36,675 nucleotides of DNA from positions 1 to 36,675 of the IMG/VR virus record IMGVR_UViG_3300029925_000066, one strand, 5' to 3'. Of the stretch, positions 2,730 to 28,442 are shown in pieces (within the stretch, counting starts at the first letter, position 1; the number at the start of each line of letters is the position of its first letter). The translations under genes and the position numbers were made by a program. Source of the stretch: a virus. Its lineage: Duplodnaviria > Caudoviricetes. Below the pieces are notes generated by a model. The model was given only the letters and a program-made list of their open reading frames with translations, made no database searches and was not told where the DNA came from.

Positions 2730-4793
2730 TTAGGTTGACAATGCAATAACTCTTAGGTCTTTTGCTTGTGGAACATTGGCGCTATTCTTACTTAACATCA
2801 CAAATTTTAATTGGAATGTTGTGAATGGTGCCGTCGGTATATCAACTGTATATTCATATTGACGGAAAATTGTTGGGTCGTCATCCGTTTGAATTGTTTC
2901 ATCAATTGTTGCTTTAATCCATGCTTGTTCAGAAAGCGCAGCATCAGAACCAGCGGGAAGTGTTCTATAATATGTATCAAATTCAGAGTCTGACGGACGA
3001 TTGATTGCAATCAGAATTTTGATACCCTCGGCAGGAGATTCCAATGTGACTGGACGGACAATATGCTTGGCGATACCAGAACCGTTACCTGCATCAGTTT
3101 CGACTACAAAATTCGCAGGCACATTGAAGCCTGTTGCAGGCGCAGCTGCTTGGCGGTCAATCCTGTTACCGATCAGGTTCACAGACATACGACTAAGGTC
3201 GATCACTGGTGAAAGGTATGTGGAATCTGTGGTCAAGACAGCCTTGAGTGCCATGGACCGCTGGCCACCCAGACTTGCAGTCTGATTTTCAACAGAAGCT
3301 ACAAGACGTGCCGTGTTGAATGTGTTATTATCGTTCGGTAAAATCGCTGTATATGTTGCAGTCTTCTGATAAGCAGTTTCGGACCCCGCAACTGATTTGC
3401 CTGATGTTGTCTTGGCAGTCCAAGCAATATTGGAGCCCGGCAAAAGCATTGCATTTATGTTAGGGAATGCAATATTATATTGATAATTTTCTTGTGCGAG
3501 AACGGCAGTGCCACCCCCAAAACCAGATGATGTAGCGGTGCCTGCAGTGACTACCGTGTAGCTGTCAATATCGGCAGCATCAACAACAGTCTGTTGCACA
3601 TTGATTTGCGCGGCAGTGATACCATTTACAGCAACGGCCCCAGACAGTGTGACTAAGTCACCGGCTATCAAGCCGTGGTCAGGATGGCGCACTCTAATGG
3701 TGGTGCTTGCATTGGTTGTCTCGATTGGGGAAGATACCAGACGCCGAACCGGCACACCCGTATTTTCGAAGTATGCATTACCATCCACACTGGTTGAGAA
3801 CACAGCGCGTTTAACCTTAAACATCAAGTCCCGACTTTGATCTGGTGTCCAAGTCGAACCATTCTGAGACTTGAAGAAAGAACCCATGGCAGGCTGTTTC
3901 ATAATTCTTTTTGTTGTGGAGCCTACAACAAATTCTTTGGTCACACCGGTCCACACTTCATAAGCATCCGACTCAGCCAGAACAACAATCGCATATTCCT
4001 TGAAGCCGTCCAGAAATACCGGAGCCTCAAATGTGAAGGTGGTGAATGTTGCTGCGGTGTTGACGTCAGGGGCAGCACTAATGTTCACATCAGATGCATT
4101 AACAAAGATTTCCGCACCCGGCAAAACCCGATCTGTTGGCAAACCATTCTCCATGGCCCGAATTTGGCAGCGCACCGGCACAGCCGAAGACTTGGTCTTG
4201 AAGAAAAGATCGATAGAAGTGACGAAACCACCCTCAAGTTTTTCAATCAGAAAACTTTGCGCGACCGGATCAACACGACGAATAGGAGGAGGTGGCGGCT
4301 CAGGCAGAAACGTTGTTATGGTACGAGCAATAGTCTCAAGGGTTCCTTTTGCTGTGTATGAAGCAAAAGCTTTTGATGTTGCATTAATATCTGTGGTCGC
4401 ACTGAAGTCCCGCAATTTAAATTCACGGGTACCGGTACGAAACCGCGTGGCTGTCGTATTAGGCAGATGGAATGAACCCTCGATAGTACCATTGGCATCC
4501 GAGATAAGATCGCTGGCTGTGTCGGGGTGTGTGGTAATATCCGACCATTCATTACTGGAAGGTTGATTGTCTACTGTTGAAATATTAACAAAAGTTTCTT
4601 CACGACAAAATGTTGTCACATCCGTATTATCAAAGAATGCCTTGTGCTTCGTATTAGGCAGCAATCCCTGCACCCGGAAGTAAATCTTACGAGAACGAAT
4701 GAATGGTACGAATACGATATTCACTGATCTGGTTTGAGTTACTTCCCGAATACCACCGGGGAGTCTACGCGTAATTGTTGTGGTCGTAGCCAT
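2730..4793 (-). CDS. Virion structural protein, C-terminal part of DUF4815/VrlC-like family
   Basis: PFIRSR, F.TG.REF.L, DPVAQSF, GSFFKSQNGSTWT..Q..DL.F and SPVIDL motifs; ends DLRVIAL. Confidence 0.8.
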   Translation of the reverse strand: MATTTTITRRLPGGIREVTQTRSVNIVFVPFIRSRKIYFRVQGLLPNTKHKAFFDNTDVTTFCREETFVNISTVDNQPSSNEWSDITTHPDTASDLISDANGTIEGSFHLPNTTATRFRTGTREFKLRDFSATTDINATSKAFASYTAKGTLETIARTITTFLPEPPPPPIRRVDPVAQSFLIEKLEGGFVTSIDLFFKTKSSAVPVRCQIRAMENGLPTDRVLPGAEIFVNASDVNISAAPDVNTAATFTTFTFEAPVFLDGFKEYAIVVLAESDAYEVWTGVTKEFVVGSTTKRIMKQPAMGSFFKSQNGSTWTPDQSRDLMFKVKRAVFSTSVDGNAYFENTGVPVRRLVSSPIETTNASTTIRVRHPDHGLIAGDLVTLSGAVAVNGITAAQINVQQTVVDAADIDSYTVVTAGTATSSGFGGGTAVLAQENYQYNIAFPNINAMLLPGSNIAWTAKTTSGKSVAGSETAYQKTATYTAILPNDNNTFNTARLVASVENQTASLGGQRSMALKAVLTTDSTYLSPVIDLSRMSVNLIGNRIDRQAAAPATGFNVPANFVVETDAGNGSGIAKHIVRPVTLESPAEGIKILIAINRPSDSEFDTYYRTLPAGSDAALSEQAWIKATIDETIQTDDDPTIFRQYEYTVDIPTAPFTTFQLKFVMLSKNSANVPQAKDLRVIALST

Positions 4794-4803
4794 TAATTAA
4801 TAC

Positions 4804-7791
4804 CTATCGTCGGAATGAGAATCTAGTCTGATTGCGGATGTTGCCCGTAAACGCATCAACAGCGGGACCAACAGGCGTTCCAGCCCAGTTCCATCGCCAG
4901 TTATTGAAGTTGTTGCCCTGTACTGGACTGGTGGTTGGAATGTTTCCTGTTTCCTGAACAGTGACACTAGTGGTTGTGGTTTCAACGTCTCGCCATTCGT
5001 CAGTCAATGGCGACAAACGAATACCACCAATATTTGTGATGACGTTGTATGGATTGACGTTGACGCTTGAAGACGCCAGACCTTGGATCACCAAATCTTC
5101 TTCTGTGAAAGACAAGAGAAGAAAGTCACCCTTACGAACAACCCCACTCGAAACACTGGAATCAGACGCCGTTGCCTGAAAAAACATTTTAGTATTTCTC
5201 TCAGAGAAGCCCGCGCGCATGAAGCCTTGTTCAGGATCAATAGACGCCCTGTATTCTGGACTGGATGTATCAGAGAAGAAATGGGTCTGGAAGTTATCAA
5301 CAAAGAAGCCAGACTTGAAACGATTGTTACCAGCGGCATCAAGAACTTCAAGGGAATCTGTGTTCAGCTCCAAGAGGGAAAGTGTTGTGTATTCCTCAAT
5401 GCGATCCAACCGACTTTCGATTTGACCGATATCACGCATGGTGTAACGACGGTTCTCAACAAAGGCGAGAGACACATCATTCTCATCAATAGTACCAGCG
5501 CTCAATTTAATCTGATAGATTTCCATAGCGTTGACTGGTAGGGGCGGGGCGCCCGGCTCAAGGTCTGGATTACCTTTAATGGTTCCAAACGTTCCTGCCG
5601 AATCTACATAGAGTGTATCAATTCTAGGAAGAAAATATTCAATGTCTGCCTGAATGGTCTCATTGATCTTTGGAAGTTCGTTTACGACTGCACCAGCACC
5701 AGAGTAATTTGCATTGGTGTCATCTCGCCTTGGACGAAAATCGAACACATCGGCCAATCGAACTTTAGCACTATCACTCAAGGTGTATGAAGGAATGGCA
5801 CCATAGGATTGGGCAGCAACCAAACCATCATAAGAGTCTACATTGAAATATGAACCAGTTGCACCATGGCCAAAGTATTCGAACGTGACCTTGACGTTGC
5901 CGGTTGGGGCAGTTTGACCGGTCTTAAGAAGTAAACGCCCCTCCTGATAGAAGTTGTCCCGTTGCCCATTGTCCAGTGTGTATCGCGCTGTGATGTCTGC
6001 ATCAGCATTATCAACATCTTTCACGATAGTCAGCTTGAAGATATCGAACTGGGCTAAATCAACATTGCCACCCGATGGAGTCAACACACTGTCAGTAACA
6101 GTTGTGAGGGTCTTGGCCCGTGCATTGGTTGTTGCGGTGGTTTTATCGACGTACGAAATGAATGTATATGTCGAAGAAACATCCAACCCAGAAACCAAAA
6201 TAGTCTGGGCACCGGTCGCCGCAAATGTAGGCGTTGTAATCGTACCGTCATTCTTGATGACAATCCAATCTGATGTTGCTTCCCATGAAATATTAGCATC
6301 CCCGGTATCCAAGGTGACATCCCCGGAAACATCTGTGATGTCTGTTACTCTACGCTGGACCCGGACAGTGATGTCCGTGACCTCTTTGATACGTTCGAAT
6401 GGAACTTCAAAGAAAAGATTATTATTTGCTGTCTCTTTGAGAGCCGCAATGTTGGTTGCAATGATTGTGTCTGTGTCATCGATCAATACGGCTTGGAATG
6501 TACCTGTGTCGTGAACAGTGGCATGATCAGAAATCTTCCGTACGCCATTGAAACCACCGGAGGTCATAACAACGTCAAACAGATATATGCGGTACTTCCC
6601 ACCAGCTTCTCTACTGACAGAACGCACACGGGCAGACCCTACCAGAACTTCTGTTCCAGCATTGTCATAGAGATATATTTTTTGGAAGGTGGAAATGTCC
6701 AGAACATCCAGACGAGTGGGGGCATTGACCCGAACATAGTTACCAAATGACGCGGAAATCTTACCGTTGTTCTTGATGTCGGTCGTCAGAGCCTTATCGA
6801 TATCCACGGCAGTAGAGATTGATTTCTCGACAAGGAAACCCTTAATGTATGCCCGGCCCGGATCGGAGTGTAAAGTCAGCTTATTGACATCTGATGCATG
6901 GGCTTCAACTCGTGTAATAAATGGGTCAACAGTGTAGTCACCAGATTCATCATGGGTCCGTCGAGCGATTTCATTGCCCAGAATGGCGTAGGAAGTCCGC
7001 TCAAAGCGTTCAACAATAACTTGATCCCGAAGTGTAGCAACCGTGAAATAATCGTCTGTCGACGTTGTGTCGGCTTTCTTGATCAGCGTCATGGCTAGTT
7101 TCAGCCGGTCGGCACCCGGTGCATTTTCATTATTGGTCCCGGCGGCATTATCAAGCAAAGACGTGTCAGTCGCAGACTGAATAATACTCTCAAGAGCAAT
7201 CAGTCCAATTTCTTGTGTGCCTGTCGGAATACCGTACTTCTCAATGATCAGGCTTTGGGTTGTGGCCACAACAAAGAAACCCTTGACAAAGTAAACACCC
7301 TTGTCGAGATTAACTTTTGTGCCCTGTCCCGTAGCAGCCGTTGCCGCGGCAGTAAATGTACCAGACCCGGTGCCGGACACGACAATACTCTCGCCGTCCA
7401 CAAACCGACCAGAACCATTACCACCACTTGTATATTGCAGGTAGAATGTGGCTGGGTCACCCCCATCAACCTCGACCTTTTGTACCAATTTTGCAGTGAT
7501 CCCCGAAGTCGAGCCGGTCAGGGTGTCCCCCACAATAGCCGTACTGATATCAGTTTCTGTTAGCTTGACAAATTCATAGAGGGTATCAATAGTCGTACCC
7601 CCCGGAATAACAACAGACCCGTCAATAAAAATATTTTCCCCAAATTTTGTAATCTGATTTTGAAGAAGGGTCTGAAGCTGTGTAAGCTCTCTGGCCTGAA
7701 CAGCACGCGACGGACGAAACAACAGCCTGTGAAACTGTTTGTTGTCGTCAAAATCGTCGTAGTATGGGGATGTGCTTAAGTCGAGAGCCAT
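4804..7791 (-). CDS. Virion structural protein, N-terminal part of DUF4815/VrlC-like family
   Basis: SPYYDDFD..K.FHRLLFRP..AVQARELTQLQ, NAPGADRLK, ARRT.DESGDY, DNGQRDNFY and RFKSGFFVDNF motifs. Confidence 0.85.
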   Translation of the reverse strand: MALDLSTSPYYDDFDDNKQFHRLLFRPSRAVQARELTQLQTLLQNQITKFGENIFIDGSVVIPGGTTIDTLYEFVKLTETDISTAIVGDTLTGSTSGITAKLVQKVEVDGGDPATFYLQYTSGGNGSGRFVDGESIVVSGTGSGTFTAAATAATGQGTKVNLDKGVYFVKGFFVVATTQSLIIEKYGIPTGTQEIGLIALESIIQSATDTSLLDNAAGTNNENAPGADRLKLAMTLIKKADTTSTDDYFTVATLRDQVIVERFERTSYAILGNEIARRTHDESGDYTVDPFITRVEAHASDVNKLTLHSDPGRAYIKGFLVEKSISTAVDIDKALTTDIKNNGKISASFGNYVRVNAPTRLDVLDISTFQKIYLYDNAGTEVLVGSARVRSVSREAGGKYRIYLFDVVMTSGGFNGVRKISDHATVHDTGTFQAVLIDDTDTIIATNIAALKETANNNLFFEVPFERIKEVTDITVRVQRRVTDITDVSGDVTLDTGDANISWEATSDWIVIKNDGTITTPTFAATGAQTILVSGLDVSSTYTFISYVDKTTATTNARAKTLTTVTDSVLTPSGGNVDLAQFDIFKLTIVKDVDNADADITARYTLDNGQRDNFYQEGRLLLKTGQTAPTGNVKVTFEYFGHGATGSYFNVDSYDGLVAAQSYGAIPSYTLSDSAKVRLADVFDFRPRRDDTNANYSGAGAVVNELPKINETIQADIEYFLPRIDTLYVDSAGTFGTIKGNPDLEPGAPPLPVNAMEIYQIKLSAGTIDENDVSLAFVENRRYTMRDIGQIESRLDRIEEYTTLSLLELNTDSLEVLDAAGNNRFKSGFFVDNFQTHFFSDTSSPEYRASIDPEQGFMRAGFSERNTKMFFQATASDSSVSSGVVRKGDFLLLSFTEEDLVIQGLASSSVNVNPYNVITNIGGIRLSPLTDEWRDVETTTTSVTVQETGNIPTTSPVQGNNFNNWRWNWAGTPVGPAVDAFTGNIRNQTRFSFRR

Positions 7792-7815: not shown

Positions 7816-8118
7816 CTATACTTTGAGTTTAGTCTTAAGCTTCTTGAAGCCGCCATCTTTTCCCACAAATGGCCGAACACCTTGAATTTGACGTCTCGTG
7901 CCAGTCATAATGAATTCGAATTCGTCTTTGTCGTCATCTTTGTTCTTGGTGATGGTGACCGGGCCTCTAGATTTAGCCAAGCTTGTAAGCTTGGCTCTTT
8001 GTGATGCCGGAAAAGAAAACTTCATGAAATGGGTTTGTGTGCCTTCATTGAGTGCTTCATTGATCTCCCTGATGATACGGGAAGCTTTCCGGTGTAGTTC
8101 GTTTAATTTTTTTGACAT
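7816..8118 (-). CDS. Small basic protein, putative internal head protein
   Basis: 100-aa Lys-rich ORF with KLNE, EINE and ALNE in the first 25 aa. Confidence 0.6.
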   Translation of the reverse strand: MSKKLNELHRKASRIIREINEALNEGTQTHFMKFSFPASQRAKLTSLAKSRGPVTITKNKDDDKDEFEFIMTGTRRQIQGVRPFVGKDGGFKKLKTKLKV

Positions 8119-8120: not shown

Positions 8121-9683
8121 TTAGTTCCTTTTACTGCCAATGACTTCATTGACGCCTTCTATAAGAGATTTATGGATGTTGTGTTCTACGGCTTCGTCTA
8201 ACGCGTTAGCTTTCGCAAACTTCTGAACTTTGAGCAATTCATCAAGTTCTATGGAAACAACATTGTTCCCTTGATCAATATCAACCAGTTCGTCAAAAAT
8301 TGTAAGGACGGTTGGATCATTACCAAACCTACCGGGAATGACTAGTTCGGCTCCCTCATTGGTTAAGTTTTTACGGAGAAACGCAATAGTTTTTGCGATT
8401 TCAGACTTCGTTAACGATACTTCCGCGTCTCCCTGTTCAATGTCGGTTACTTCATCAAAGACTGTCACACGAAGTGTTGGGTTACCAAATTTACTTTTAA
8501 TGAATAGCTCGGGAGATTCGTTAAGAGTTCTTTCGTTAATTGTGCTTTCATCCAATGTGCTTTTGTTTGCAAACGCCCGAAGCTGAATTAGCTCTTCTAA
8601 TGTAAAAGAAATGGCACCACCAGAAGCCTGACTCATAAATATCTTACCCTTACTCATCTGGACACGCGTTTCCGGTGTATCGAACACCTCAACACGAAAT
8701 GAAGTTCGGTCACCGTTTTTAGCCTTTTTGGCCCACGCTACAATTTCCCTGACCTCTTGTTTAAAGAGTCTTACTTTGCTCCGACCTACCGTAACTGTGG
8801 TTATTTTACCGTCACCGGATAAACTCTTTTTACCAATCCTGCCAGTTTTGGCGGCTTCGATAAGAGACGCATGGGTGTTGTGCTCTACGCTTTCATCCAA
8901 TGTGCTTTTGTTTGCAAACGCCCGAAGCTGAATTAGCTCTTCCAATGTAAAAGAGATGACACTACCAAGCTGGTCCAAGAATATCTTACCCCTGCGCAGC
9001 GAAACCCGCGTTTCTGGTATGCTGTCATCTTCAGTACGGAATGAAATACTTTCGCCCTGCTTAGACTTTTTAACCCACGCTACAATTTCTCTGATCTCTT
9101 GTTTAAAAAGTCTTAGCTCTTCACCGCTCTTCAAAGTAACTGTGGTTATTCTATCAAAACCTTCCACACTTTTTCGCCCAATCCTACCAGTTTTGGGTGG
9201 CAGGCGCCCAAATTGGTCTCTTTTACCGGCTTCGGATATATTTCTGTATGATGGCATTTTGTTTGTCCCTGTTCTTTCGTTAGTTGGTTTGGATGGCCTC
9301 AGGGTTCTTGCTACTTTGCGCACCGCTGCCGTTAATCTTTTTATGTTTTGTACACCGATTTCTACGATGCTGCTTTTACGGTTCTCAAGGTCTCTCTTAA
9401 TTATACGAATTAAACCTCTACGCTTCTTCACGACAATCTGAGAAAAACTTGTCGAGGCGATCTCAATTTCAGCACTACCTCTTAATTTCGCTGCCCGTAT
9501 TACAGCATTATTGAAACGGCCCGCAATTTTAGGGGAAAACTCTACTACATCTGTTGACCGGTTTGAGAAATCTCGCTCCGTGATACGAATAAGGTTAGCG
9601 TTCGCGCTGACGGTAATCTGGTATTCATCAGTAGATTCAACTTCAATTCCACTAAGTGATGCCTCAACTATCCTTTTTGTCAT
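8121..9683 (-). CDS. Repeat-built basic protein, putative internal-head polyprotein
   Basis: 520 aa in three pairs of internally repeated modules; the linkers are rich in (L/I)-x-E. Confidence 0.65.
   Translation of the reverse strand: MTKRIVEASLSGIEVESTDEYQITVSANANLIRITERDFSNRSTDVVEFSPKIAGRFNNAVIRAAKLRGSAEIEIASTSFSQIVVKKRRGLIRIIKRDLENRKSSIVEIGVQNIKRLTAAVRKVARTLRPSKPTNERTGTNKMPSYRNISEAGKRDQFGRLPPKTGRIGRKSVEGFDRITTVTLKSGEELRLFKQEIREIVAWVKKSKQGESISFRTEDDSIPETRVSLRRGKIFLDQLGSVISFTLEELIQLRAFANKSTLDESVEHNTHASLIEAAKTGRIGKKSLSGDGKITTVTVGRSKVRLFKQEVREIVAWAKKAKNGDRTSFRVEVFDTPETRVQMSKGKIFMSQASGGAISFTLEELIQLRAFANKSTLDESTINERTLNESPELFIKSKFGNPTLRVTVFDEVTDIEQGDAEVSLTKSEIAKTIAFLRKNLTNEGAELVIPGRFGNDPTVLTIFDELVDIDQGNNVVSIELDELLKVQKFAKANALDEAVEHNIHKSLIEGVNEVIGSKRN
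8544..8954. repeat. Direct repeat pair, 8544-8609 and 8889-8954 (54 bp identical; 65 of 66 matching)
   Basis: GCTTTCATCCAATGTGCTTTTGTTTGCAAACGCCCGAAGCTGAATTAGCTCTTC at offset 345; encodes SFTLEELIQLRAFANKSTLDES. Confidence 0.95.
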
Positions 9684-12184: not shown

Positions 12185-13971
12185 TAAGCAGTTGTGTCCT
12201 CAACACCATTGGCAGCCACAGCATCATTCTCAATACGAAGCAACATGTTTCGAAGTGGCATGACAGTGGAATCGTCAAGAGGAACAGCCGTGATCGCAAC
12301 GAAGTTATCGGAACCAAATGCCGTAGGCTGGAATGGATTGATTACAACTGAGTTATTGGCGTAATCAATCTGTCCTGCATCATCAACCACAATAATCTCA
12401 TTGCTTCCTGAAATCCGAAAGATTTCAAGAGTAGATTTCCCTGAGATATTGCGAAGAAAGCAGGTAAAATTGACACCATCTATTGTGTAGACAAAAGCGT
12501 TGGATGATACAATAACCGGCTGTCTGGTTACTGGAGCCAAAGGAAGGGTGAACTCTACGGTGTAGGAATCCTTTGCGCCAAGTGTAGGAATAAATCTACG
12601 CTGGACATTAACATCCGCTTCTGATGATGCAATGGCATCGTTACTCGCATCAATTGTGGTCGTCAGGTTTGATTTACGAAAGGGTGAATCAAATGAGACA
12701 AGATTGTCTGTGCCATATTTGACGATTGAATCCTTGACCGCATTGTCAATCTGTTGCTTGGTGAGCGTTGTCTTGGATGGGTTATAGAGATAATTCATTT
12801 TGATGACCAGAAATTCAAAGGTTGGGTCAACAAATTCAAACCTGACTGTGACAATAGCTTTGTCATCCAAAGCGTTTACTCTGATCTGTGATTCCTGAGT
12901 GGCAGTAATCGCATCAGCCCCCACAGGTTTGATCGCAATGAAAACTTTTCCATACTCTCTTTCGGGATTATCTTCTCCCCCCCAGACATTAATGGACTCG
13001 ATGAATGTCGCGAAATTCAAGATGTGTGCCCGGTAGTCAGCAACAGTCACGACACGATTTTGTGCAGCAAATGCAAGGGGGGCATTAAAGCGGATTGACT
13101 CGATTGATTCCTTGTCCGCGCCACCGGCGGCCTTGGTGGTTGTGGATACGCTAGCCGCAAACCCGGCAATCTGTCCCGACAGGGAAAACACAGACGCACC
13201 ATTGGATGCCGCACCATTGGAAGACAGGTAATCGATCTGTAAGATAGATCCTTCGGCAGGCTTTGCGCCCATAACACCATCACCAAGGAAGATTTCATAG
13301 AAGCCGTTGGGGGCCTCATGTAGTAGATAAATGTTTGAAGTTCCGTCAAGTGTGCTTACGGTTCCGGGGAGGGACAGTGTGATTGAATTGGTCGAACCAA
13401 ATCCCTCAAACAAGGCAACGGTCGCTGTCCCGCTGTCAAAATTCTCATCAGGAATAACGTATACCGGATACTGATCAACTTCAGCATCAACAAAAAACTT
13501 TTTGGTTTTGGCTTGGCCTTCCTTAATCACCACTCCGGTCACAGAATAGTTATCAGATGACTTGGCAATATGTTCGTCCAAGGTGTGGTACAAATAGGTC
13601 ACACCATCGATAGACGTAGAGAATTTTGTGTTCTTGGGGATTGTGATGTCAGATGTTCCCGGAGGGACAGACAGGAGTGTCACAGTAATTGTTGCGGTGG
13701 CCCCGGTCTTGGTCTTGGGGAGATAATTCAAAGGCTTCGCATGCGAAACGATAGAGCCACGCAATTGCGCTGAATCAAGGAATGATTCATTAAGACCAAA
13801 GTTCGCATTCAGGGCATTGAAGTGTGTGTTGTATGCGAGTATATCAAGGAGGGAACTGATTGCCGACCCTTCGAAATCAAAGTCATTGAACTTGCCGCTA
13901 TTTTTCAGATGAACAATAAGCGATGCCCTGATTGCGTCGACACTTAGCTCTGTGGTTGTAAAATTTGGCAT
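12184..13971 (-). CDS. gp6: Baseplate wedge subunit gp6
   Basis: FNDFDFEGS..S.LLD.LAYNTH, ESFLDSAQLR.S.VSHAK, GG...ESIESIRFNAP..FAAQNR.VT..DY and WGGEDN...YGKVFI motifs. Confidence 0.95.
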   Translation of the reverse strand: MPNFTTTELSVDAIRASLIVHLKNSGKFNDFDFEGSAISSLLDILAYNTHFNALNANFGLNESFLDSAQLRGSIVSHAKPLNYLPKTKTGATATITVTLLSVPPGTSDITIPKNTKFSTSIDGVTYLYHTLDEHIAKSSDNYSVTGVVIKEGQAKTKKFFVDAEVDQYPVYVIPDENFDSGTATVALFEGFGSTNSITLSLPGTVSTLDGTSNIYLLHEAPNGFYEIFLGDGVMGAKPAEGSILQIDYLSSNGAASNGASVFSLSGQIAGFAASVSTTTKAAGGADKESIESIRFNAPLAFAAQNRVVTVADYRAHILNFATFIESINVWGGEDNPEREYGKVFIAIKPVGADAITATQESQIRVNALDDKAIVTVRFEFVDPTFEFLVIKMNYLYNPSKTTLTKQQIDNAVKDSIVKYGTDNLVSFDSPFRKSNLTTTIDASNDAIASSEADVNVQRRFIPTLGAKDSYTVEFTLPLAPVTRQPVIVSSNAFVYTIDGVNFTCFLRNISGKSTLEIFRISGSNEIIVVDDAGQIDYANNSVVINPFQPTAFGSDNFVAITAVPLDDSTVMPLRNMLLRIENDAVAANGVEDTTA

Positions 13972-13975
13972 ATGA

Positions 13976-14425
13976 TTATCTTAGACGCTCCAGAACAATT
14001 TCGAGTGTGATGGTTTCAGTCAGGGTGACGACCTGAAATTCTATTTCAACAGTGACGAAATTTTGATCAGGATCGCCTTCTGCAGTTATATTTATAATTT
14101 TTGCTCTTGGCTCGAAGTTCTTGATACACAATTCAACATAGGTTTCAATTGCACCCAGAGTAGAGAAGTCAGACAGTTCAAACAGAAGGCCCGACACACC
14201 CGAACCAAGGGTAGGCTTGAAGGGTCTCTCATAGAAGTTTGTGAGGATCAAAGACTTGACTGCTTGCTTTACAGCGGCAGCATCTTTCTTAATGAAGATG
14301 TCCCCTGTATTGGAATTCACACCAAAGAGCAGATCAATGTCACTATACTTTTTTGTGCGGGTAGTAACAATTGAACCTACATTGAGGTTGGCATCGTCTG
14401 CCGCAAATTTACGTGTTGTAGCCAT
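13976..14425 (-). CDS. gp25: Baseplate wedge subunit gp25
   Basis: YSDIDL.F, AVKQAVK.LILT...ERPF.P.LG...LLFE and FEPR motifs. Confidence 0.95.
   Translation of the reverse strand: MATTRKFAADDANLNVGSIVTTRTKKYSDIDLLFGVNSNTGDIFIKKDAAAVKQAVKSLILTNFYERPFKPTLGSGVSGLLFELSDFSTLGAIETYVELCIKNFEPRAKIINITAEGDPDQNFVTVEIEFQVVTLTETITLEIVLERLR
14089..14096 (-). promoter_or_regulatory. Possible intragenic late promoter TATAAATA upstream of gp6
   Basis: Exact consensus inside gp25, ~120 nt before the gp6 start. Confidence 0.45.
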
Positions 14426-14436
14426 GTCTTATCCTG

Positions 14437-15117
14437 TTATGAAGTTGGATCAAAAATAACAAATTCACCATTCTTGCGCCATCCGACATTGCCATCATGA
14501 ATGTCTTGTTTACCAATCGGGGCAATGTCCACCAAAAACTTACCCAATTGTTTGAATGGCACCCCAAAGAATCCTTGAACGTCACGCTCGGTTGTCTCAT
14601 ATTCAACTTTTGACAGAGTGCCCTTGGTGTGTTGAATCCAAAGTTCCTTAAAAATATTCATCCGGCGGGGTGACACGCCAGCCCTCGCGGCTCTATTCTC
14701 ATCAATATCAAGAAACTCAATAAGACCGACAGTAAAGAATCCAAACTTCTCACTGTCGTATTCCTTCAGTGCCAAAATCTTAGGGTACAGAGAATCGGTC
14801 TTATGTTTTTTCATTGCCATCTTGGCAAAACCGGGCCATGAATCACTTGCAGCAACCCGCTCACCCTTACTTACCTTAAGCACAAAGTCAGCTTTCTTTG
14901 ATCCAACCTTGGCAACAGAGAAAGCGCCCTCACCAACATCACGAACCGTAAAGCGCTCATTGATAAACCGCATAAAATCCTGAAACGTCTTAATCTGAAC
15001 TTCTTCCAAATTTTGATTGATATAATTTCCCCGCTGCATTACAGCTGCGATAATATTGGCTTCACGGGCACGTTCATTGAGCATACCTTCAGTAACTGAA
15101 TCTATAAGTTTACGCAT
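14437..15117 (-). CDS. Protein kinase, T7 gp0.7-like catalytic domain
   Basis: Gly loop VGEGAFS, VLKV lysine, YPKI, catalytic loop DIHDGN and metal-binding IFDP, all in canonical order. Confidence 0.8.
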   Translation of the reverse strand: MRKLIDSVTEGMLNERAREANIIAAVMQRGNYINQNLEEVQIKTFQDFMRFINERFTVRDVGEGAFSVAKVGSKKADFVLKVSKGERVAASDSWPGFAKMAMKKHKTDSLYPKILALKEYDSEKFGFFTVGLIEFLDIDENRAARAGVSPRRMNIFKELWIQHTKGTLSKVEYETTERDVQGFFGVPFKQLGKFLVDIAPIGKQDIHDGNVGWRKNGEFVIFDPTS

Positions 15118-15120
15118 GTT

Positions 15121-17067
15121 CTACTCCGATAAATCGCTAAGGCCCGAACCAACACTTACGTGGTTGAATTCAGTGCTGATGGTCTTGGCATTCACACCGT
15201 TCTTGATGGAAATTACCAAGGTAGGTTCATTGACTCCCGACGGGTCATAGTCGATGTAAGATAAAATTAATTTATCAAACACAAGGTTCTCTTGTATCCA
15301 TCCCGCAACCTCAAAATAGTAACTGTTGGGGTGGTCAGGAAACTGAATTCCAACAGCCAGACCTTGCGCGAATTCAACGTTGATCGAATCACTGTCCAGC
15401 TGCTCATTGGGTAATAAATTGTACAGACCCTCCGAAATATTGAAGGTGTCCTTGTATTTATTACGAAGCAATTCTAAGACATTGAATGAGAGCAATTGCA
15501 TGTTCTCAGCGATCTGTTGTTTGGTCAGTCCTACCTGATCTATGAATTGCCCACCCTCAGAGTCACCAGCCAAAAGGTGTGAAACCCTATAGCGAGGTGA
15601 CAGCCGAGTACCACGTTCTGGTGTGGTTATCTTAAATTGCTCTGGTATCGATAAGATCCTAAGGTTGTTACCGATTTTGCCTGTGAAGGTCTTGTCTACT
15701 GCCTTGGTCCCGATGCGATTGGTCCCGGTCTTTACAGTATTGGCCGCCGCGGTACGTTTGGTCGCCGGGGCGGAACCACCTCCGATAGATGACTTGGCGG
15801 CTCCACTATTGACAGTGTCCTGCAGCCATTTAGAATCGGTCATTAAACTTTTATTTCTTGCTCGGCTCGTAACTTCCCCAGTATTGAGTGGCCGTTTATT
15901 GAAATTGGAAAGCTCGGTTCGATCAATATTGACGATGAATTCATTGGAAGTGTTGGTCACGTCGGTCGCTGTCTCGGTTGTGGCTGGCCCGGCACTGCCT
16001 GATGTAGGAGCCACCGGCCCCGGAGTGGTTGGGCTTGATGCACCGGTTGGGGCCGATCCCGCAGTGAGAGCAAAGTCAGACTTCTTGGCTGTTCCTTCAA
16101 ATGTAGGAGCATTGACCGTACCGGTGACGTGAACATCACCCCGAGCATGCAAATCTGCTGTCAGGAATACATTGTCACCTGTCCAGTCATCCCCAAAATA
16201 ATTTTTGGTTTCGATCTTACCGGCTCCAACTGTACCGGTAGCATTCTTCCCGTTCATGTTCAGGAACCCACCAAAGAATGATGCCTCCAGCGGACCTTCG
16301 GACAAGATGATAGATGACCCCTGAGTGGTGACCTTCCAATCCCCACCATATTCTTCGGTGTGTGTTCCCACAGTACGCTCAAGATAGTTAGAAAGATTGA
16401 GTTCTGTGACAGACCCCCGTGTCTGGCGTAAACGCGTGCCGGTCGTAGTGTTTTGATCATCTCCATGGACACGTAAAGTACGGTTGCCCTGTACTTCAAT
16501 GTTCTGGTCACCCTGTACGAGCACGTTATGATCACCATCCACCTGCATATCACAATCACCCTGCACCCGAATAGATGCATCAGATTCAATAATAATATTT
16601 ACGGTACCTCGAATGACAACATTATCATCCCCCGCAATGATTGTGTATGCATCACGCTCGATGACAGTTGTCATGGACCCATCAGGAGCCATCTCAATCT
16701 TGGTGCCTGTCTGGTGTTCCCAGTTCAGTCTTTCGTGACCGGGAGTGTCATCAACCTCATGGATGTGGCCAGACGTTGATTCTGTGACATGATTGTGGGG
16801 GTAGCGAGTTTGTGAGGGAGTGTTGGGTTGGTTGACCGAGTCTTTGGTTAACTGGGCATCCCGGCTTTTTGTTCGAGCGCCCTTTGTTCCCCTATTGTTC
16901 CCACCCTTGGTCAAACGAGAGCGAGCCCGATTGTTTATGTCGGGCTGGCCACTATATTCAGTTTTAGGTAAGGCACCGGCTTGGTCTTGAAATCCCTCCG
17001 GGACTTCGCCGCCAATTCGTGGAACTATTCCCTCACCGGTGTGGTCATCCCCAAATTCTTCTTCCAT
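15121..17067 (-). CDS. gp5: gp5 C-terminal part: beta-helix spike plus degenerate peptidase M15-like domain
   Basis: YPHNHVTESTSGHIHEVDDTPGHER motif, 8-residue VxG repeats, and C-terminal LSPRY...NMQLL...VLE.LR...FDKLIL. Confidence 0.85.
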   Translation of the reverse strand: MEEEFGDDHTGEGIVPRIGGEVPEGFQDQAGALPKTEYSGQPDINNRARSRLTKGGNNRGTKGARTKSRDAQLTKDSVNQPNTPSQTRYPHNHVTESTSGHIHEVDDTPGHERLNWEHQTGTKIEMAPDGSMTTVIERDAYTIIAGDDNVVIRGTVNIIIESDASIRVQGDCDMQVDGDHNVLVQGDQNIEVQGNRTLRVHGDDQNTTTGTRLRQTRGSVTELNLSNYLERTVGTHTEEYGGDWKVTTQGSSIILSEGPLEASFFGGFLNMNGKNATGTVGAGKIETKNYFGDDWTGDNVFLTADLHARGDVHVTGTVNAPTFEGTAKKSDFALTAGSAPTGASSPTTPGPVAPTSGSAGPATTETATDVTNTSNEFIVNIDRTELSNFNKRPLNTGEVTSRARNKSLMTDSKWLQDTVNSGAAKSSIGGGSAPATKRTAAANTVKTGTNRIGTKAVDKTFTGKIGNNLRILSIPEQFKITTPERGTRLSPRYRVSHLLAGDSEGGQFIDQVGLTKQQIAENMQLLSFNVLELLRNKYKDTFNISEGLYNLLPNEQLDSDSINVEFAQGLAVGIQFPDHPNSYYFEVAGWIQENLVFDKLILSYIDYDPSGVNEPTLVISIKNGVNAKTISTEFNHVSVGSGLSDLSE

Positions 17068-17552
17068 TAGAGTGCACTAAATGTGGTAAGTGATAGGATA
17101 GCGAGCGTTGCCCCACCATCGGAATTATTCACTACTGTGACAGAACCATTGGGGGACGAATCCGGCGGGTCACCCTGTTGTGTGTAGTCAATACGGATTA
17201 CATCCCCATCAACTGCATTGAACGCTACGCCGAATGTTTTCAATACTCCATTGAGCTTTACTGTTACGGCCCCATCAATGGTGAAATCATCCACAGTAAT
17301 TGAAATTGTGGTGTTGATGCCACCAATGGCACCAGAAGCACTCCCAGTTTCCGGCCCTAAAGTAGCCGGACTAAACGAAAACGTTGCGGTCACATCACTA
17401 CTCGACGTGCCGTAAAAATCAGACATCGCAATGATCCCAGACGCGGGTACAGTATCCACCCCATAATATTCCGATAGAGAAATAGGGTTGGACCCCCCAA
17501 ATTCTGTTTGAATTTCGGAGAATTTAATTATACCTGTCGTCTGGAGGGTCAT
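17067..17552 (-). CDS. Fibre-associated protein (fibre-tip adhesin-like)
   Basis: N-terminal MTLQTTG.I.FSEIQTEFGGSNPISLSEYY...SG.I..SDFYG module, typical of genes downstream of S74-chaperoned fibres. Confidence 0.65.
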   Translation of the reverse strand: MTLQTTGIIKFSEIQTEFGGSNPISLSEYYGVDTVPASGIIAMSDFYGTSSSDVTATFSFSPATLGPETGSASGAIGGINTTISITVDDFTIDGAVTVKLNGVLKTFGVAFNAVDGDVIRIDYTQQGDPPDSSPNGSVTVVNNSDGGATLAILSLTTFSAL

Positions 17553-17853: not shown

Positions 17854-17861
17854 TATTTATA
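17854..17861 (-). promoter_or_regulatory. T4-type late promoter TATAAATA
   Basis: Exact consensus in the intergenic gap. Confidence 0.8.
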
Positions 17862-18404: not shown

Positions 18405-18412
18405 TATTTATA
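18405..18412 (-). promoter_or_regulatory. T4-type late promoter TATAAATA overlapping the upstream stop codon
   Basis: Exact consensus 20 nt before ATG 18385. Confidence 0.75.
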
Positions 18413-21400
18413 TACTATCCAAGATTGACTGGACCAGTTTCTTCAATGCTTGAACTTCACCTTCAAGTGCTTCACGCTTTTTCTTTTCTTCGTACAAGGC
18501 TGCGACGGCATACTTGCCATAATCAAGAGACAGGATTCCATCATCATTCGCAATTACGAATTCTGAACCATGTTTTTGAACTTCTTGGGCAGTAGGACCG
18601 ACACCCTTCCGGCCACTGTCTTTCCATGTGTATTCATAGGCCGTCAGATTATCGATCAACGCCGGACGATCCAAAATATTTAAAATATTCTTTAGGCGTT
18701 CATCAGAGTTAGCCGTGACGTTACCCGTTGCTGTGAAATCTCCGGTAGTCCGGGCAAAGGTAAATCGAAGTGTTGCGCCGTCCTTAATGGTTAGATTGCC
18801 CGCATTAAGTTCTATTCGATTCGTTGTTCCGTCATGATATATCTGCATGTCCGACCCAGTACCCAGAATCACACGAACATTGTCATTAAATATCTGGTTG
18901 GCGGTCCATGTTATTGCTTCCCCCGCCAAATATCCCGCAAAAGCGGTACGACTGCAGGTCCGCATAAAGTTATCACCAGATCCACTGCTGCTATTCCGGA
19001 AGCAAATAGCAGCAGTGGCTGCAATGGTAGTTGTTTGGGTTGCGAAGTCCGAACGAATAAGCCGACAATGTATGTCACCCGTACTGTTTCGCCCCACCAC
19101 GGTACTGATTGTGGCGGCAGTAGAGACGAGGGCCAGTCCGTCAAGTAATCCAGCATCGAGACCAGACCCGACTCCGTCGTTACCCGCATGCCAGACTTTA
19201 TTGCCATTAATATCTATTTCACCATTCGCATTTATCTTACCGGTGTATGTCCAAATCCCAACACTGGTAGAATAGGTATGCTCGGCACCCGTCCCATTAC
19301 CAAACCCAAAACCATTATTATGAAAGTCTGTCCCGAGAGATATATATGAGTGGTCGGAGACATCAACGCGCTTCTGGAGTTTAAGTTTTGATGTTGTCCA
19401 GTCAGCACCTGCAGACACTCGATCATTCAGAACCACTAATTTTGCACGATTGCCAACCGAACCATCTATGATCGTTATTTCGGTTGTGTTACCAGCCACC
19501 GAACCAAGCACGGTGGTAGATTTCCATGTGAGCATCGTAGCGTCTAGATTAAGATACTCACTCGACCCGCTAATACTAGTAGCCTTAACGATCTTGAAAT
19601 CAGTGCCATCCGTTCCGATAGACCATAATTTTTCACCGGCGGTTATACCAAATGATATATTGGGTTGACCAGCAAGACCGTGAATAGTAATATCCGATAC
19701 AGTGCCAACAGTCCGACGGAAGATCGCCATTGGGCCACCAGCACCACCGCCTTCAACTAGGAAACCTGCAGTCGCAGTCGCATTTGCATCAATGACCTTG
19801 ACAAATGATGGGCTAACAACTAACGACGCCCCGGTTGTATCATTTGTTCCGGGACGAATGTTCACACTCTTGCCCGCAACCGATGTCGAGATATATGTGT
19901 TGGTATCCGTCTGCCCGTGCATGATAATATAATTGCCATTCGGAGCCATCAACCCGGAATATACGGCATTGGTCACATTATTCTGCCAAGGCCCCAAACG
20001 TGATTCGACATTGTTTGAACCGGACTTAGTAATGAAGAATTCGGCTTGCGCATCACTGGCAATAGTCACCAGACCGGAACTACCAATCCGCATGGCTTCT
20101 GTGCCATAGTCTGAATTCGCTACGCCATATGCTTGGCCAACAATTCCTGTCCGAAACACCAAAGCAGTTGGCATATCATTGATAGTGTTGAAGTCTCCAT
20201 CAGATACAGCCACCATGGAAGCCGCATAGGCAATGTTACCCTCGGTGCCATCCGTATGGTTACCCCCGAAATAGATGGAACCAATATGTTTGCCCGAAAG
20301 GGTTTTTGCACCACTGGTGAGCTTCTCAAGAAGTAATGCCCCCGAAAAACTCTGGCTGGCATTGGGGTCTGATCGCTCTCCCCGGACTCTCACGACAGGT
20401 GCCGCATTGGCCCCCGAACTATCCTCAACAAAAATACCACCGGTAAGACCTGTACCAAATACATGTAATGTTGCATCGGGTGTTCCAGTCCCGCCGATCA
20501 TCAGATTGTCCGTCATGTTCACATCGCCATTGCCATGGAAGATGACAGTGTCGGTTGTGGAATTTGGACGGAACAGGAACCCGCCTGTAACAACACTGTG
20601 TTTGAAGCGAGTAGAATCATCCTCAACATCCGCTGTCTGGGCAATGTTCAGGGTATTGGTAGCAGTTGCAATATCATCACGCTTGACATTGAAGCCCGCC
20701 GCATTATGTACAGTCAGAACACCGGTTGTTGTGTCATCGGCATCCGAGCGCAAGAATTGAGTACTATTCAGCCCATCGAACAGATCAGCGTCAATACCGG
20801 ACCCCGCCCCAAAGTCATCCGAGGTGATGATATTGAAATAGTTTGTACCGTCGTTGGTCAGCTGCCATTTATCGGCAGCTTCATCCCAAAGAAGGCTGAC
20901 ATTCGGGGATGTTCCCCGTTCGATTTCCATGCCCGCATCTTGGGTTGGCGCTCCAACCTCATCAACATTGAGCGTGAAGATGTTATCACTGATGTTCAGG
21001 GTATTGGTATCGATGAATGTGGTTGTACCGCTGATTGTCAGGTCACCGGTGACTATCAGATCACCGTTGGCTGTTGTATTACCCGAGCTATCAATAACAA
21101 GATCGGATCGAGTCGCAAGTGATGTAAGTACCAATTCCCGGGTTGCGGTGTTGCTTGACGCCGCAATAATCAGATCACCGGAAGAAGAATCTCTTCGGAT
21201 ATAGGATGCATTCAATACACCGAATGCCCCGGTCGCACCATCAATGATGATACCATCAACGGCATTTGCAAATTGAGCAGCCGCCGTGAATGACTTCGCA
21301 CCCGTGATTGTCTGTGTGCCCGCAATTTGAACAAATGCACTTGAATCATTTCCATCCAGAGTGTCTGCATCAACATTCAGGGCATCAACAAATATCTTTG

Positions 21401-23534
21401 TAACCCGGGCATCAATGTCTGTATTTGCTCTAGTTGTTGTATAGTAAAGGTTGGTTCCCTCGGTGATATCTGTTGTTGATCCGGTGGAGTTTGATAGCGC
21501 AAGATAGAATCCACCCGACTGACCATCAAGGAAGTCAGAGTCCAACAATGATCCGGCACCGTCGACGGTAATCAATTTGGCCAGAACATCAGTTGCGGTA
21601 TAATCAGAGACAGTGACAACATTGCTACTTCCAACCGAAACAGTTCCGGTGAAATTCTTGTTGCCCGCAATTGTCAGCTGGTTGCTTGTCAGGTCAACAA
21701 AATCACCCGCACCCGGAACACCGGTCAAGTCAGCATAATCCAAAACAGCGTTGACCCACCCCGCACCGTCATAACGCATGACCTGACCACTTACCGGAGT
21801 TGTGATAGTGAGGTCAGATAAATCATTTAAACTTGTGACAAGCGTAGGAGTGTTTACGATGTCTGCGTAATCTATGGTTGCATTGATCCAATTAGCCCCA
21901 TCATATTTTAAGTATTCCGCCAAAGCGGGGGATAATAAACTGGTGTCCGTAAGGTCATCAAGAGACACCGGTTCACCACCAACACCCGCCAAAGCAGCGG
22001 TCAACGCCGTATTGGTCACCAATCCACTCAGGTCAAGAGAGCTTGTCGCATCATCGACCGGTGGCGTAATGATCAAATCACCAACATCAACCTCACCAGC
22101 ATCCACAAGCTTAGGGACAGACCCAATAGACTTGATCAACAGGGAGGTGTCCAGTGACTTGGACGCGTCAGGTACAACAACACCCCCCGAGTCCGTGACA
22201 GGCGCACCAGTGGGCACAGGTGAGGTCTGGGCGGCTACTGTAGGCTCTGCCGCGGGAACAATTCTAATACTTTGTTGGGCCGCAACATAAGAACGAACAT
22301 CAAAGTCGGGGTCGACCTTGCCAGCGCTTAGATCACTGTGTCCGAAATATACGCTATCTGGGTACGCCAGCCCGTATTGGCGTAAGAAGCTATTAAATGT
22401 TTGGAACTGCGCGGCAGTGAGACTTCCGACCCCGAAGTCTGTAGAGCCAGAACCAGAATGATTAAGAAACCCGCCAACAAATGCGATCCCGACCGAATTG
22501 GCATTATGCCCCCCAAGTGTGTGCGAGCCATTAATATCGAGATTGCGTCCGACTTGCAGGGACCCGTCCCGTAAGATAAGAAAATGATAACCAATACCGT
22601 TCGCCCAACCGTTACCATTCCGGTGCCAGTCGTCAACGTCATGAACAGTGATGTTCTGATTCACATATGTGGCAGTCCAGTGAACAACCAGCTTATTGAT
22701 TGTCCGGGTAGACCGCATGAAAACATTTAATAAATGCTCTTCACTGGTGATAACGTCACCAAACGATACAACACCGGCAGTAGCAGATGCCGTGAAGTCA
22801 CCCCCGTCACCAACACCATTGCCAAATGCAGCATGGATTTCCCGAGCCTTACCAATGATTCTGGCATCTGTTGCAGCAGTCAGGGCATAGACAGCGTCTT
22901 CGATGGTGGATGCGTTGTAAAGGATGTTCCGTGAATTGGCTGTGACCTCACCTTCAAGGTAATAGGACAACACACTCTCAAGAACTCTTGGGTCCAGTTG
23001 ACGTCGAGCTACCCATTCAAGATATAGCCGACTATCGGTCACAAGATTTGTGATCAGGGTGTCGACATCAAGAGTGTCAGACTTCCCTTTGGTCGCAATG
23101 ACACTTATAAGGGCTGCTGCCTGCTCTTCAGTGGCACCATTGGTGATGAAATAATCCCATGCCCGTTCTGGGTTGTTGCCGGGCAGGCCCCTGCCACCAT
23201 CACGATTAATTTGTACGTTAGTAGGATCGGAGATGCCTGAAATGACACCAAGCACCAAAGGATTTTGTTTTGTTTCCCCGTCAAGGAATATACCAAACAC
23301 TTGAGCGCCATTGAGGATACCGGTAGCAGTCCTACCAATACCAGAAATGCCAGCTTCGGTTGCTGGCAAGGTAATCTGTGACCATGGGAGGTCAGATGAG
23401 GGGAGCACATCAGCATCTTCGGAGTGAAGCCCAAAAATGCGCACACGAACGCGCCCGGCTTCAAGCGGGTCATTGATATCTTCGACAACGCCAATAAAGT
23501 AACTGGTTGTGTTTCCGTAAAAATTATTTATCAT
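18408..23534 (-). CDS. gp5: gp5 N-terminal OB-fold fused to N-acetylmuramoyl-L-alanine amidase, long fibre and C-terminal S74 intramolecular chaperone
   Basis: FIGVVEDINDPLEAGRVRVRIFGLH...LPW...G..VFG.FLDG...Q.P (OB-fold); VVHWTA...IGYHF.I.RDG...GR...GSH...N..S.GI...GG...GHSD...KVDP (Amidase_2); DAD.LDG and EGTNLYYT fibre motifs; SDERLKN...G..AQEV...LDY (S74). Confidence 0.9.
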   Translation of the reverse strand: MINNFYGNTTSYFIGVVEDINDPLEAGRVRVRIFGLHSEDADVLPSSDLPWSQITLPATEAGISGIGRTATGILNGAQVFGIFLDGETKQNPLVLGVISGISDPTNVQINRDGGRGLPGNNPERAWDYFITNGATEEQAAALISVIATKGKSDTLDVDTLITNLVTDSRLYLEWVARRQLDPRVLESVLSYYLEGEVTANSRNILYNASTIEDAVYALTAATDARIIGKAREIHAAFGNGVGDGGDFTASATAGVVSFGDVITSEEHLLNVFMRSTRTINKLVVHWTATYVNQNITVHDVDDWHRNGNGWANGIGYHFLILRDGSLQVGRNLDINGSHTLGGHNANSVGIAFVGGFLNHSGSGSTDFGVGSLTAAQFQTFNSFLRQYGLAYPDSVYFGHSDLSAGKVDPDFDVRSYVAAQQSIRIVPAAEPTVAAQTSPVPTGAPVTDSGGVVVPDASKSLDTSLLIKSIGSVPKLVDAGEVDVGDLIITPPVDDATSSLDLSGLVTNTALTAALAGVGGEPVSLDDLTDTSLLSPALAEYLKYDGANWINATIDYADIVNTPTLVTSLNDLSDLTITTPVSGQVMRYDGAGWVNAVLDYADLTGVPGAGDFVDLTSNQLTIAGNKNFTGTVSVGSSNVVTVSDYTATDVLAKLITVDGAGSLLDSDFLDGQSGGFYLALSNSTGSTTDITEGTNLYYTTTRANTDIDARVTKIFVDALNVDADTLDGNDSSAFVQIAGTQTITGAKSFTAAAQFANAVDGIIIDGATGAFGVLNASYIRRDSSSGDLIIAASSNTATRELVLTSLATRSDLVIDSSGNTTANGDLIVTGDLTISGTTTFIDTNTLNISDNIFTLNVDEVGAPTQDAGMEIERGTSPNVSLLWDEAADKWQLTNDGTNYFNIITSDDFGAGSGIDADLFDGLNSTQFLRSDADDTTTGVLTVHNAAGFNVKRDDIATATNTLNIAQTADVEDDSTRFKHSVVTGGFLFRPNSTTDTVIFHGNGDVNMTDNLMIGGTGTPDATLHVFGTGLTGGIFVEDSSGANAAPVVRVRGERSDPNASQSFSGALLLEKLTSGAKTLSGKHIGSIYFGGNHTDGTEGNIAYAASMVAVSDGDFNTINDMPTALVFRTGIVGQAYGVANSDYGTEAMRIGSSGLVTIASDAQAEFFITKSGSNNVESRLGPWQNNVTNAVYSGLMAPNGNYIIMHGQTDTNTYISTSVAGKSVNIRPGTNDTTGASLVVSPSFVKVIDANATATAGFLVEGGGAGGPMAIFRRTVGTVSDITIHGLAGQPNISFGITAGEKLWSIGTDGTDFKIVKATSISGSSEYLNLDATMLTWKSTTVLGSVAGNTTEITIIDGSVGNRAKLVVLNDRVSAGADWTTSKLKLQKRVDVSDHSYISLGTDFHNNGFGFGNGTGAEHTYSTSVGIWTYTGKINANGEIDINGNKVWHAGNDGVGSGLDAGLLDGLALVSTAATISTVVGRNSTGDIHCRLIRSDFATQTTTIAATAAICFRNSSSGSGDNFMRTCSRTAFAGYLAGEAITWTANQIFNDNVRVILGTGSDMQIYHDGTTNRIELNAGNLTIKDGATLRFTFARTTGDFTATGNVTANSDERLKNILNILDRPALIDNLTAYEYTWKDSGRKGVGPTAQEVQKHGSEFVIANDDGILSLDYGKYAVAALYEEKKKREALEGEVQALKKLVQSILDSI

Positions 23535-26495: not shown

Positions 26496-26516
26496 GTGAT
26501 TGAAACGTTTCACTGT

Positions 26517-26524
26517 TATTTATA
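26517..26524 (-). promoter_or_regulatory. Late promoter TATAAATA for the gp48-gp53-hub operon
   Basis: Exact consensus 43 nt upstream of ATG 26474. Confidence 0.85.
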
Positions 26525-26549
26525 CGGGACAGACACCGAAGGGAATGTA

Positions 26550-27848: not shown

Positions 27849-27928
27849 AAAAACTCCTTGCTTGGCTAGAATGACCGGAGACTGCAATCTCGTGGGTCAT
27901 ATCTATTTATACAAGCAAGGAGTTTTTA
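27848..27928 (-). promoter_or_regulatory. Hairpin sequestering the ribosome-binding site (17-bp arms) with late promoter TATAAATA (27904-27911) in its loop
   Basis: TAAAAACTCCTTGCTTG at 27848-27864 is the exact reverse complement of CAAGCAAGGAGTTTTTA at 27912-27928. Confidence 0.85.
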
Positions 27929-28048
27929 AATTGTCGGGTGTTGTGTTTAGCTAGATCGACTCATGAAGTGATCCCACTAGCAGGAACCCGAAGGCAACAC
28001 AAACTCTATACGACGGCCCGACGCCCACCGTGTTAGATAGGGATCACC

Positions 28049-28384: not shown

Positions 28385-28442
28385 CGTATTTTCTCCAAAA
28401 TATGGTCAAAATGGGCTGTTTTAGGGTATTTTAGGGTGAATT

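Follow-up and report, generated by a model that had tools for sequence, protein, structure and literature searches.

A minimal T7 gp0.7-type kinase in the late baseplate region of a T4-like phage and the candidate head-packaging leaders of its family

The gp0.7 protein kinase of phage T7 (T7K) is reported to neutralize a large number of defence systems by phosphorylating proteins broadly (PMC13645617). When deprived of its C-terminal shut-off domain, T7K is reported to stay active, yielding ~31% of phosphopeptides and inhibiting itself earlier by autophosphorylation, and the Ser in its DPV-Ser216 motif is described as an inhibitory site (PMC13645617). The same paper lists jumbophage (Munch and G17) and prophage homologues of T7K that lack the shut-off domain and have no known function, and a T7K homologue has been noted in Sharanji (PMC11895373). 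The text of PMC13645617 nowhere uses the word 'packaged' and has a single instance of 'virion'.

Phage T4 delivers proteins by another route. Its internal proteins are loaded via their first ten residues, with targeting depending on residues 4 and 7 and cleavage, which follows L/I-x-E, on residues 8 and 10 (PMC9026906), and they act as injected restriction inhibitors (PMC12373910). The T4 Alt protein loses six residues at ITE-6 (PMC5694885). Kinase-like proteins have also been associated with virions: 21 peptides of the kinase-like S-CREM2 ORF14 were detected in virions, and similar proteins are cited for S-CRM01, S-TIM5, and S-CBWM1, co-purification being left possible for the S-CREM2 protein (PMC10665884). 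Polyvalent proteins, which are injected, have moreover been predicted to contain truncated kinases (PMC5512222).

The window analyzed here, which is the whole stretch of DNA under study, is a 36.7-kb fragment of a T4-like myovirus, about 21% complete. Pfam and PHROGs assign the baseplate and tail genes to families of the T4 type, and its gp6 is ~34% identical to gp6 of Melnitz, Mosig, and HTVC008M-type phages. The initial annotation had placed an intact kinase gene between two baseplate genes, and ORF and family searches confirmed this arrangement:

15121..17067, minus strand: gp5 C-terminal spike gene (gp5-C), matched by Pfam and PHROGs, with a 3-bp gap to the kinase gene
14437..15117, minus strand: minimal T7 gp0.7-type protein kinase of 226 amino acids, with no shut-off domain; intact, 0 internal stops
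13976..14425, minus strand: gp25 baseplate wedge gene, downstream of the kinase gene, matched by Pfam and PHROGs, with an 11-bp gap to the kinase gene

A GGAG sequence, likely the ribosome-binding site of the kinase, is located 6 nt 5' of the kinase ATG and immediately ahead of the gp5-C stop codon, and this position suggests that translation of the 2 genes is coupled. Two subsurface metagenome runs from one study, both complete holders of the window DNA, carry positions 13000–17500 on a single contig with zero differences; these runs may be the DNA's own source. No RNA dataset was among the listed records containing this DNA.

To place the gene in the infection cycle, we considered the distribution of TATAAATA, which we take to be the T4 late promoter consensus. 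Exact copies of this box occur 10 times in the window, against 1.2 expected, all within positions 1–28,000 and none in 28001–36675, and they lie mostly immediately ahead of structural genes. The copy nearest to the kinase gene on its upstream side is the following:

17854..17861, minus strand: T4-type late promoter box, exact TATAAATA, 2.7 kb from the kinase gene with three genes between

A sigma-70 scan of the window stayed at chance level (23 matches versus 17.9 +/- 5.0), with one sigma-70-like match (10 of 12) inside gp5-C, 1.5 kb upstream of the kinase gene. Because of the late promoter boxes and the tight coupling to gp5-C, the kinase is likely expressed late.

Several other features of the window were recorded. 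The gp5 gene is split in two: one product, of 1708 amino acids (18408–23534, minus strand), combines the OB domain of gp5 with an amidase, fibre-like sequence, and an S74 chaperone, and the other is a separate 648-amino acid spike C-part (15121–17067, minus strand), with four small genes intervening; the layout at L018, the closest related locus, resembles this split, with a 3076-amino acid protein. The DUF4815/phrog_358 protein is encoded by two ORFs (4804–7791 and 2730–4793) with a 10-bp gap, which is not an error because the related genomes G001 and G002 carry the identical split. A row of approximately ten small ORFs (29684–32884, minus strand), many with a similar C-terminal motif (roughly RN..N.P.[IV]), looks like a paralogue family. 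Finally, a homing-endonuclease-like gene with I-TevI and NUMOD matches (26991–27887, minus strand) has its own late box at 27904 and overlaps an opposite-strand gene (26496–27017).

The motifs named in the initial annotation (VGEGAFS at residues 61–67, VLKV, DIHDGN, and IFDP) were all found in the translation of the 226-amino acid ORF. To judge their conservation we used 46 relatives with 25–43% identity, obtained from a search of 1.84 billion representatives, which with the window kinase make 47 aligned sequences:

14917..14937, minus strand: Gly-rich loop VGEGAFS; G64 in 47/47 aligned family members
14875–14877, minus strand: ATP-binding Lys81 (in VLKV); K81 in 44/47
14488..14505, minus strand: catalytic loop DIHDGN; D205 in 45/47 and N210 in 45/47; T7K reads DMHSGN
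14440..14457, minus strand: IFDPTS, with the Mg-binding DP motif and the terminal Ser226; D223 in 45/47 and P224 in 44/47, and a Ser at DP+2 in 14/44

Ser226 occupies the place of T7K DPV-Ser216 (DPTS in the window kinase, DPVS in T7K). As had been proposed, the protein has no extra C-terminal domain: it stops two residues past DP, at DP+2, and the C-terminal DNA-binding shut-off domain is absent. The same holds for most of the family, 39/44 relatives terminating no more than 10 residues after DP.

The assignment to T7 gp0.7-like kinases was borne out by fold, profile, PHROG, and motif evidence. The AlphaFold model has a mean pLDDT of 92, with only residues 2–8 below 50 and a helix modelled at residues 2–29. 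Among viral folds, its top two matches both come from T7-like phages and are annotated as kinases (best E 7e-9, TM ~0.47), and ESM Atlas clusters point to PF27024 (Phage_T7_kinase) through features, present on 10–32% of members, as well as through structure (TM 0.65). Aligned with T7K by hhalign, the family profile gave a probability of 96% and an E value of 2e-9 over 66 columns, and it located both T7K lobes in the T7 record. The T7-kinase PHROG 15752 was matched by 34/47 aligned family sequences and weakly by the single window protein (E 2e-4). In the PDB fold search, Ser/Thr kinases and APH(2'') tied with E about 6e-5, and in a wide structural search the 25 top rows were nearly all protein kinases, with APH at rank 35 and Z scores of 6–7.5 (all <8, which is middling taken alone). 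Sequence searches with the window kinase were less productive: Pfam gave no match, tblastn against cultured phages and a related-loci scan gave no close relative, a word-indexed protein search returned the kinase itself only, encoded on a 146.7-kb contig (2 proteins with the family profile), and PDB sequence searches gave no hit with the window kinase and a best E of 0.026, not a close relative, in the follow-up. Altogether, sequence and model identify the window protein as a minimal T7K-type kinase, which by analogy to T7K would have kinase activity on Ser/Thr.

Unlike T7K, the family carries a Glu-ended sequence at its N-terminus, which in the window kinase takes the following form:

15073..15117, minus strand: leader, residues 1–15, with candidate prohead-protease sites VTE-10 and LNE-15 (predicted cleavage; the second in the E15 column)

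Both sites had been pointed out in the initial annotation and are present. A third one that it proposed, NLEE (E39), was not retained: this Glu lies outside the conserved columns, in a stretch of the alignment with many gaps. The E15 column is Glu in 44/47 aligned family members, and Arg directly follows the leader Glu in 36/47, while T4 IPII and IPIII have Ala at this place. For the leader counts, two sequences with incomplete N-termini were set aside. The pattern L/I/V-x-E, its Glu at residue 6–16, was present in 40/45 relatives versus 92 of 446 background ORFs (21%), the latter being non-kinase ORFs from six phage records; the P value of this count is overstated, family members being kin and not independent samples. 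The same loose rule picked out 25/28 relatives with a best match starting no earlier than query residue 26, and also 2/3 podophage-type kinases. Applying the strict T4 position rule (hydrophobic residues at -6 and -3 from the Glu) retained 19/45 relatives versus 19/446 background ORFs, and the window kinase was not among the former.

We then scored leaders with a matrix built from 40 family leaders, with the window kinase excluded and no T4 input. When left out in turn, 30/40 family leaders exceeded the 95th percentile of the background (5.2). T4 IPII and IPIII both scored 10.8, a value reached by 2/446 background ORFs, and they were the only ones above 2.5 among 19 T4 genes scored in one stretch; T4 IPI was missed by the matrix. 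The start of the S-CREM2 virion kinase scored 10.9. The window kinase scored 4.1, below the 95th percentile and equalled by 33/446 background ORFs, and the kinase of its closest relative 4.5; these scores measure likeness to the relatives' leaders, which may not be the tag consensus of the window phage, whose head genes lie outside the fragment. Two Milchi kinases scored negative and three podophage-type kinases between -7.5 and 3.7, and T7K and the DSS3 and Vibrio 1.170.O kinases have no leader Glu of this type. No gp21 or other head gene is present within the 36.7-kb fragment; a gp21-type prohead protease is encoded by the closest relative (G001) and by G004, G005, and RHph_I1_18.

We next compared the genomic surroundings of the relatives. 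Among 77 viral gp25 loci, a kinase was found in only 1, L018 (gp25 54% identical), where it occupies the same gp5C-kinase-gp25 slot as in the window and begins MQSYSQFIQLVE/R. The two kinases share 29% identity, versus 45–56% for the four flanking proteins compared. L019 has the same split gp5 and no kinase in that slot, and other relatives reside in replication, tRNA, and other regions, so that the significance previously attached to the baseplate position was not supported. Further loci were obtained by scans for a C-terminal DNA motif, which are blind to the leader, and the kinases found in this way in L016, L002, and L008 carry leaders as well; one scanned locus, L015, was rejected as it contained no kinase by the family profile. 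L016 encodes two tandem kinases starting MKTFEQFLIE and MKTFEQFIAE. The jumbo record G005 has seven kinase matches in two clusters, several of which begin MKLSDILQLNE/R or similar, and in G003, two kinases in what we read as a replication region adjoin another leader-bearing protein. The G004 kinase bears its phage's own tag, F-x-x-LFE, which is found in 8/305 ORFs of that phage versus 1/305 in four other records, and proteins with this tag include InPase and weak PcfJ matches. At L011, a related kinase domain ends an 879-amino acid protein, read as MuF-like, between Mu-like portal and Mu-like protease genes, and the surroundings of further motif-scan kinases are read as podophage genomes. Across these contexts, then, it is the tag and not the baseplate position that accompanies the kinase.

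Inspection of G004 (L113–L120) also showed that the F-x-x-LFE leader is present on at least 8 unrelated proteins, the long neighbours being polyprotein-like with ES-rich linkers; one of them shares an HRFGH motif with the protein adjoining the G003 kinases.

Two cultured T4-like phages illustrate both forms of the kinase. The Rhizobium phage RHph_I1_18 (MN988519.1) has a three-gene unit downstream of CATAAATA (L128 41–2567) that consists of a fusion protein in which a phrog_18642/2086 part is followed, after VVKE, by a kinase, a 221-amino acid kinase (EVB91_002) starting xKSFSEHIAE with a leader score of 13.4, and a third tagged protein, read as putatively ADP-ribosyltransferase-like. In the Pseudomonas phage Milchi, gp21 is present and the kinases are leaderless and located among small non-structural genes. 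T4-like phages therefore use both tagged and leaderless kinases. In a quick tree that omits the fragments P0024, P0027, P0028, and P0045, tagged kinases appeared in three places with weak support (32/59 inner branches open, long branches meeting). Neither the family profile nor three PHROGs located the fold-search match H6X4G3, a RaK2 protein, in the record of that phage. The profile also gave no match in S-CRM01, S-TIM5, and S-CBWM1, a result of little weight given the loose first pass of that search.

These observations bear on the proposal of the initial annotation that the kinase is packaged, trimmed, and injected. We judge it somewhat more probable than otherwise that the window kinase is a head-packaged, protease-trimmed, and injected kinase of host proteins. 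According to this model, the kinase would be made late in infection, loaded into the prohead by its leader, trimmed after Glu10 or Glu15 by a gp21-type protease, and ejected into the host along with the phage DNA, where it would phosphorylate host proteins, including defence proteins, ahead of phage gene expression. Arriving together with the phage DNA, the kinase would be close to defences that sense DNA, and such delivery could, speculatively, replace the DNA-binding domain that serves T7K to this end. Because Ser226 is kept, a late-made kinase could by analogy switch itself off before packaging; inhibition of the kinase by its leader, if it occurs, would avert this self-silencing and spare the producer cell. 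T7K without the shut-off domain gives ~31% of phosphopeptides and self-inhibits sooner, so that a low dose of packaged enzyme could have little effect except close to the DNA as it enters. From sequence we infer the timing, packaging, cleavage, ejection, and Ser/Thr activity of the window kinase, and from analogy its anti-defence role. Fast divergence, patchy presence, and paralogue batteries would point to conflict and not to assembly. The packaging reading is better supported for the family, whose leaders are T4-like and recur on unrelated proteins within one phage, than for the window kinase itself, to which it extends weakly, with a leader below the 95th percentile. Extended to T4-related large phages in general, the model would describe a widespread clade of stand-alone T7K-type kinases, leader-addressed to the virion, sometimes in batteries of up to seven, which once injected would phosphorylate host proteins en masse from the very start of infection and provide counter-defence without phage expression, and which would be held off in the producer and switched on by head-protease cleavage; we put this generalization forward only tentatively.

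The strongest alternative is that the late-made kinase stays in the producing cell, where it would blunt late-acting defences or tune lysis or superinfection, and that the Glu-Arg start is either a tag in decay or a helix with a structural or self-regulating function. The weak leaders of the window kinase and its closest relative are in line with this, as is the conserved Arg16 (36/47); judging from the model, Glu-Arg could belong to the first helix of the kinase rather than to a cleavage tag. Moreover, of all steps the late context alone is shown for the window kinase, and Milchi, a T4-like phage with gp21, has leaderless kinases. However, the Glu is kept where the next residue or the following domain differs (L016, G004, and RHph_I1_18), the leader of the G004 kinase follows that phage's own tag, and tagged kinases fall in separate parts of the quick tree. 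We regard a role confined to the producing cell as rather unlikely.

Alternatively, the substrates of the packaged kinase could be proteins of the phage itself, in the baseplate, the head, or the other cargo, modified while particles assemble or eject their contents. The coupling of the kinase gene to gp5-C and gp25 in both the window and L018 suggests such a role, and T7K also phosphorylates phage proteins (PMC13645617). Against it, 76/77 gp25 loci are without a kinase, including L019 with the same split gp5, relatives reside in replication, tRNA, and other non-structural regions, and seven matches in one genome together with fast divergence would be unusual for a morphogenetic enzyme, and we consider this reading improbable. 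Equally improbable is that the protein is no protein kinase and is packaged as an enzyme for small molecules, like aminoglycoside or choline kinases, or is in decay with little activity left: the tie of APH(2'') with Ser/Thr kinases in the PDB, the missing substrate-binding C-lobe of ordinary kinases, and the description of the S-CREM2 virion enzyme as APH/ChoK-like (PMC10665884) speak for this, but the E values of viral T7-type kinases are better by four orders of magnitude, DxHxxN and DP are as in T7K, APH comes at rank 35 in the wide structural search, whose 25 top rows are nearly all protein kinases (although all Z are <8), and all catalytic residues are intact.

The initial annotation had also joined the kinase and two genes elsewhere in the window into one system:

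8121..9683, minus strand: accessory protein, 520 amino acids, with clustered L/I-x-E between repeated modules and a weak PurA/PC4-like fold lead
7816..8118, minus strand: basic protein, 100 amino acids, with L/I-x-E at residues 7, 18, 21, and 25 and no family match

We looked for a link between these proteins and the kinase in their families, by slot comparison, and in leader scores, and did not find one. The L/I-x-E sites of the 520-amino acid protein are at residues 264 and 276; 379, 384, and 389; and 497 and 509, and its PurA/PC4-like fold lead is weak (TM by query 0.22). The leader matrix gave scores of 2.1 and 1.8 to the two proteins. The slot between gp8 and the DUF4815 gene, which they occupy in the window, holds a different 151-amino acid gene in L018 and none in G002, and neither protein has detectable similarity to the L018 protein of the corresponding slot. 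From its sequence, the 520-amino acid protein may be further head cargo.

If the packaging model is true, its significance lies in timing. T7K needs transcription and translation first, and a packaged kinase would act at DNA entry, before the first defence response. It would parallel T4 Alt, with phosphorylation as the modification, and would help to explain the recurrence of kinase-like proteins in myovirus particles. RHph_I1_18 is a cultured carrier with a near-canonical tag on EVB91_002, which makes this reading directly testable. As for novelty, our full-text literature searches, with most subscription papers outside their scope, found no capsid-tagged T7K-type kinase, and the available parts of PMC3012670, PMC7824862, PMC3622015, and PMC13326640 added nothing on the window kinase family; Supplementary Table 8 of PMC13645617 may list members of it. 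The earlier description of the system as undescribed would thus hold at most for the combination of capsid tag and T7K-type kinase and not for virion kinase-like proteins, polyvalent kinases, or T7K homologues lacking the shut-off domain, which are already published (PMC10665884, PMC5512222, PMC13645617).

Compared with the known systems, the window kinase is closest in its enzyme to T7K (PHROGs 2828 and 15752; PF27024), with which it shares the truncated kinase fold, the Gly loop, the Lys, DxHxxN, DP in place of DFG, and a Ser at DP+2. It differs in the absence of the C-terminal DNA-binding domain, in its late structural context (T7K is an early gene), in the Glu-ended N-terminal leader of its family, which T7K does not have, and in a large sequence distance, the profile match extending over 66 columns. 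In its proposed delivery it resembles the T4 proteins IPI-III and Alt, which have a short N-terminal leader ending in L/I/V-x-E, and the family leaders are near the start of IPII and IPIII. Alt is likewise a packaged, trimmed, and injected host-modifying enzyme, the kinase using phosphate and not ADP-ribose. Here, however, the cargo would be a kinase, Arg is usual after the Glu, and the window leader has 15 residues, two sites, and a weak match.

S-CREM2 ORF14 is likewise a kinase-fold enzyme in a myovirus particle with a leader of the same type; it differs in its 755 amino acids, its DLG motif, and the long sequence beyond DLG, and it is faintly similar (E 1e-4 in a one-sequence search). The S-CREM2 genes 6, 13, and 14 (L137), all virion-detected, have MKxFxxFLxE-like starts, a tag that the available part of PMC10665884 does not mention. 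The kinases of polyvalent proteins, which we compared by description, have also lost the C-terminal subdomain, are (pro)phage-encoded and predicted to be injected, and have been compared with T7K (PMC5512222). They are described with a Glu ahead of strand 2. Unlike the window kinase, they belong to larger proteins with several domains, encoded by (pro)phages of Verrucomicrobia-Chlamydia and Bacteroidetes, and carry a His-Asp insert (PMC5512222).
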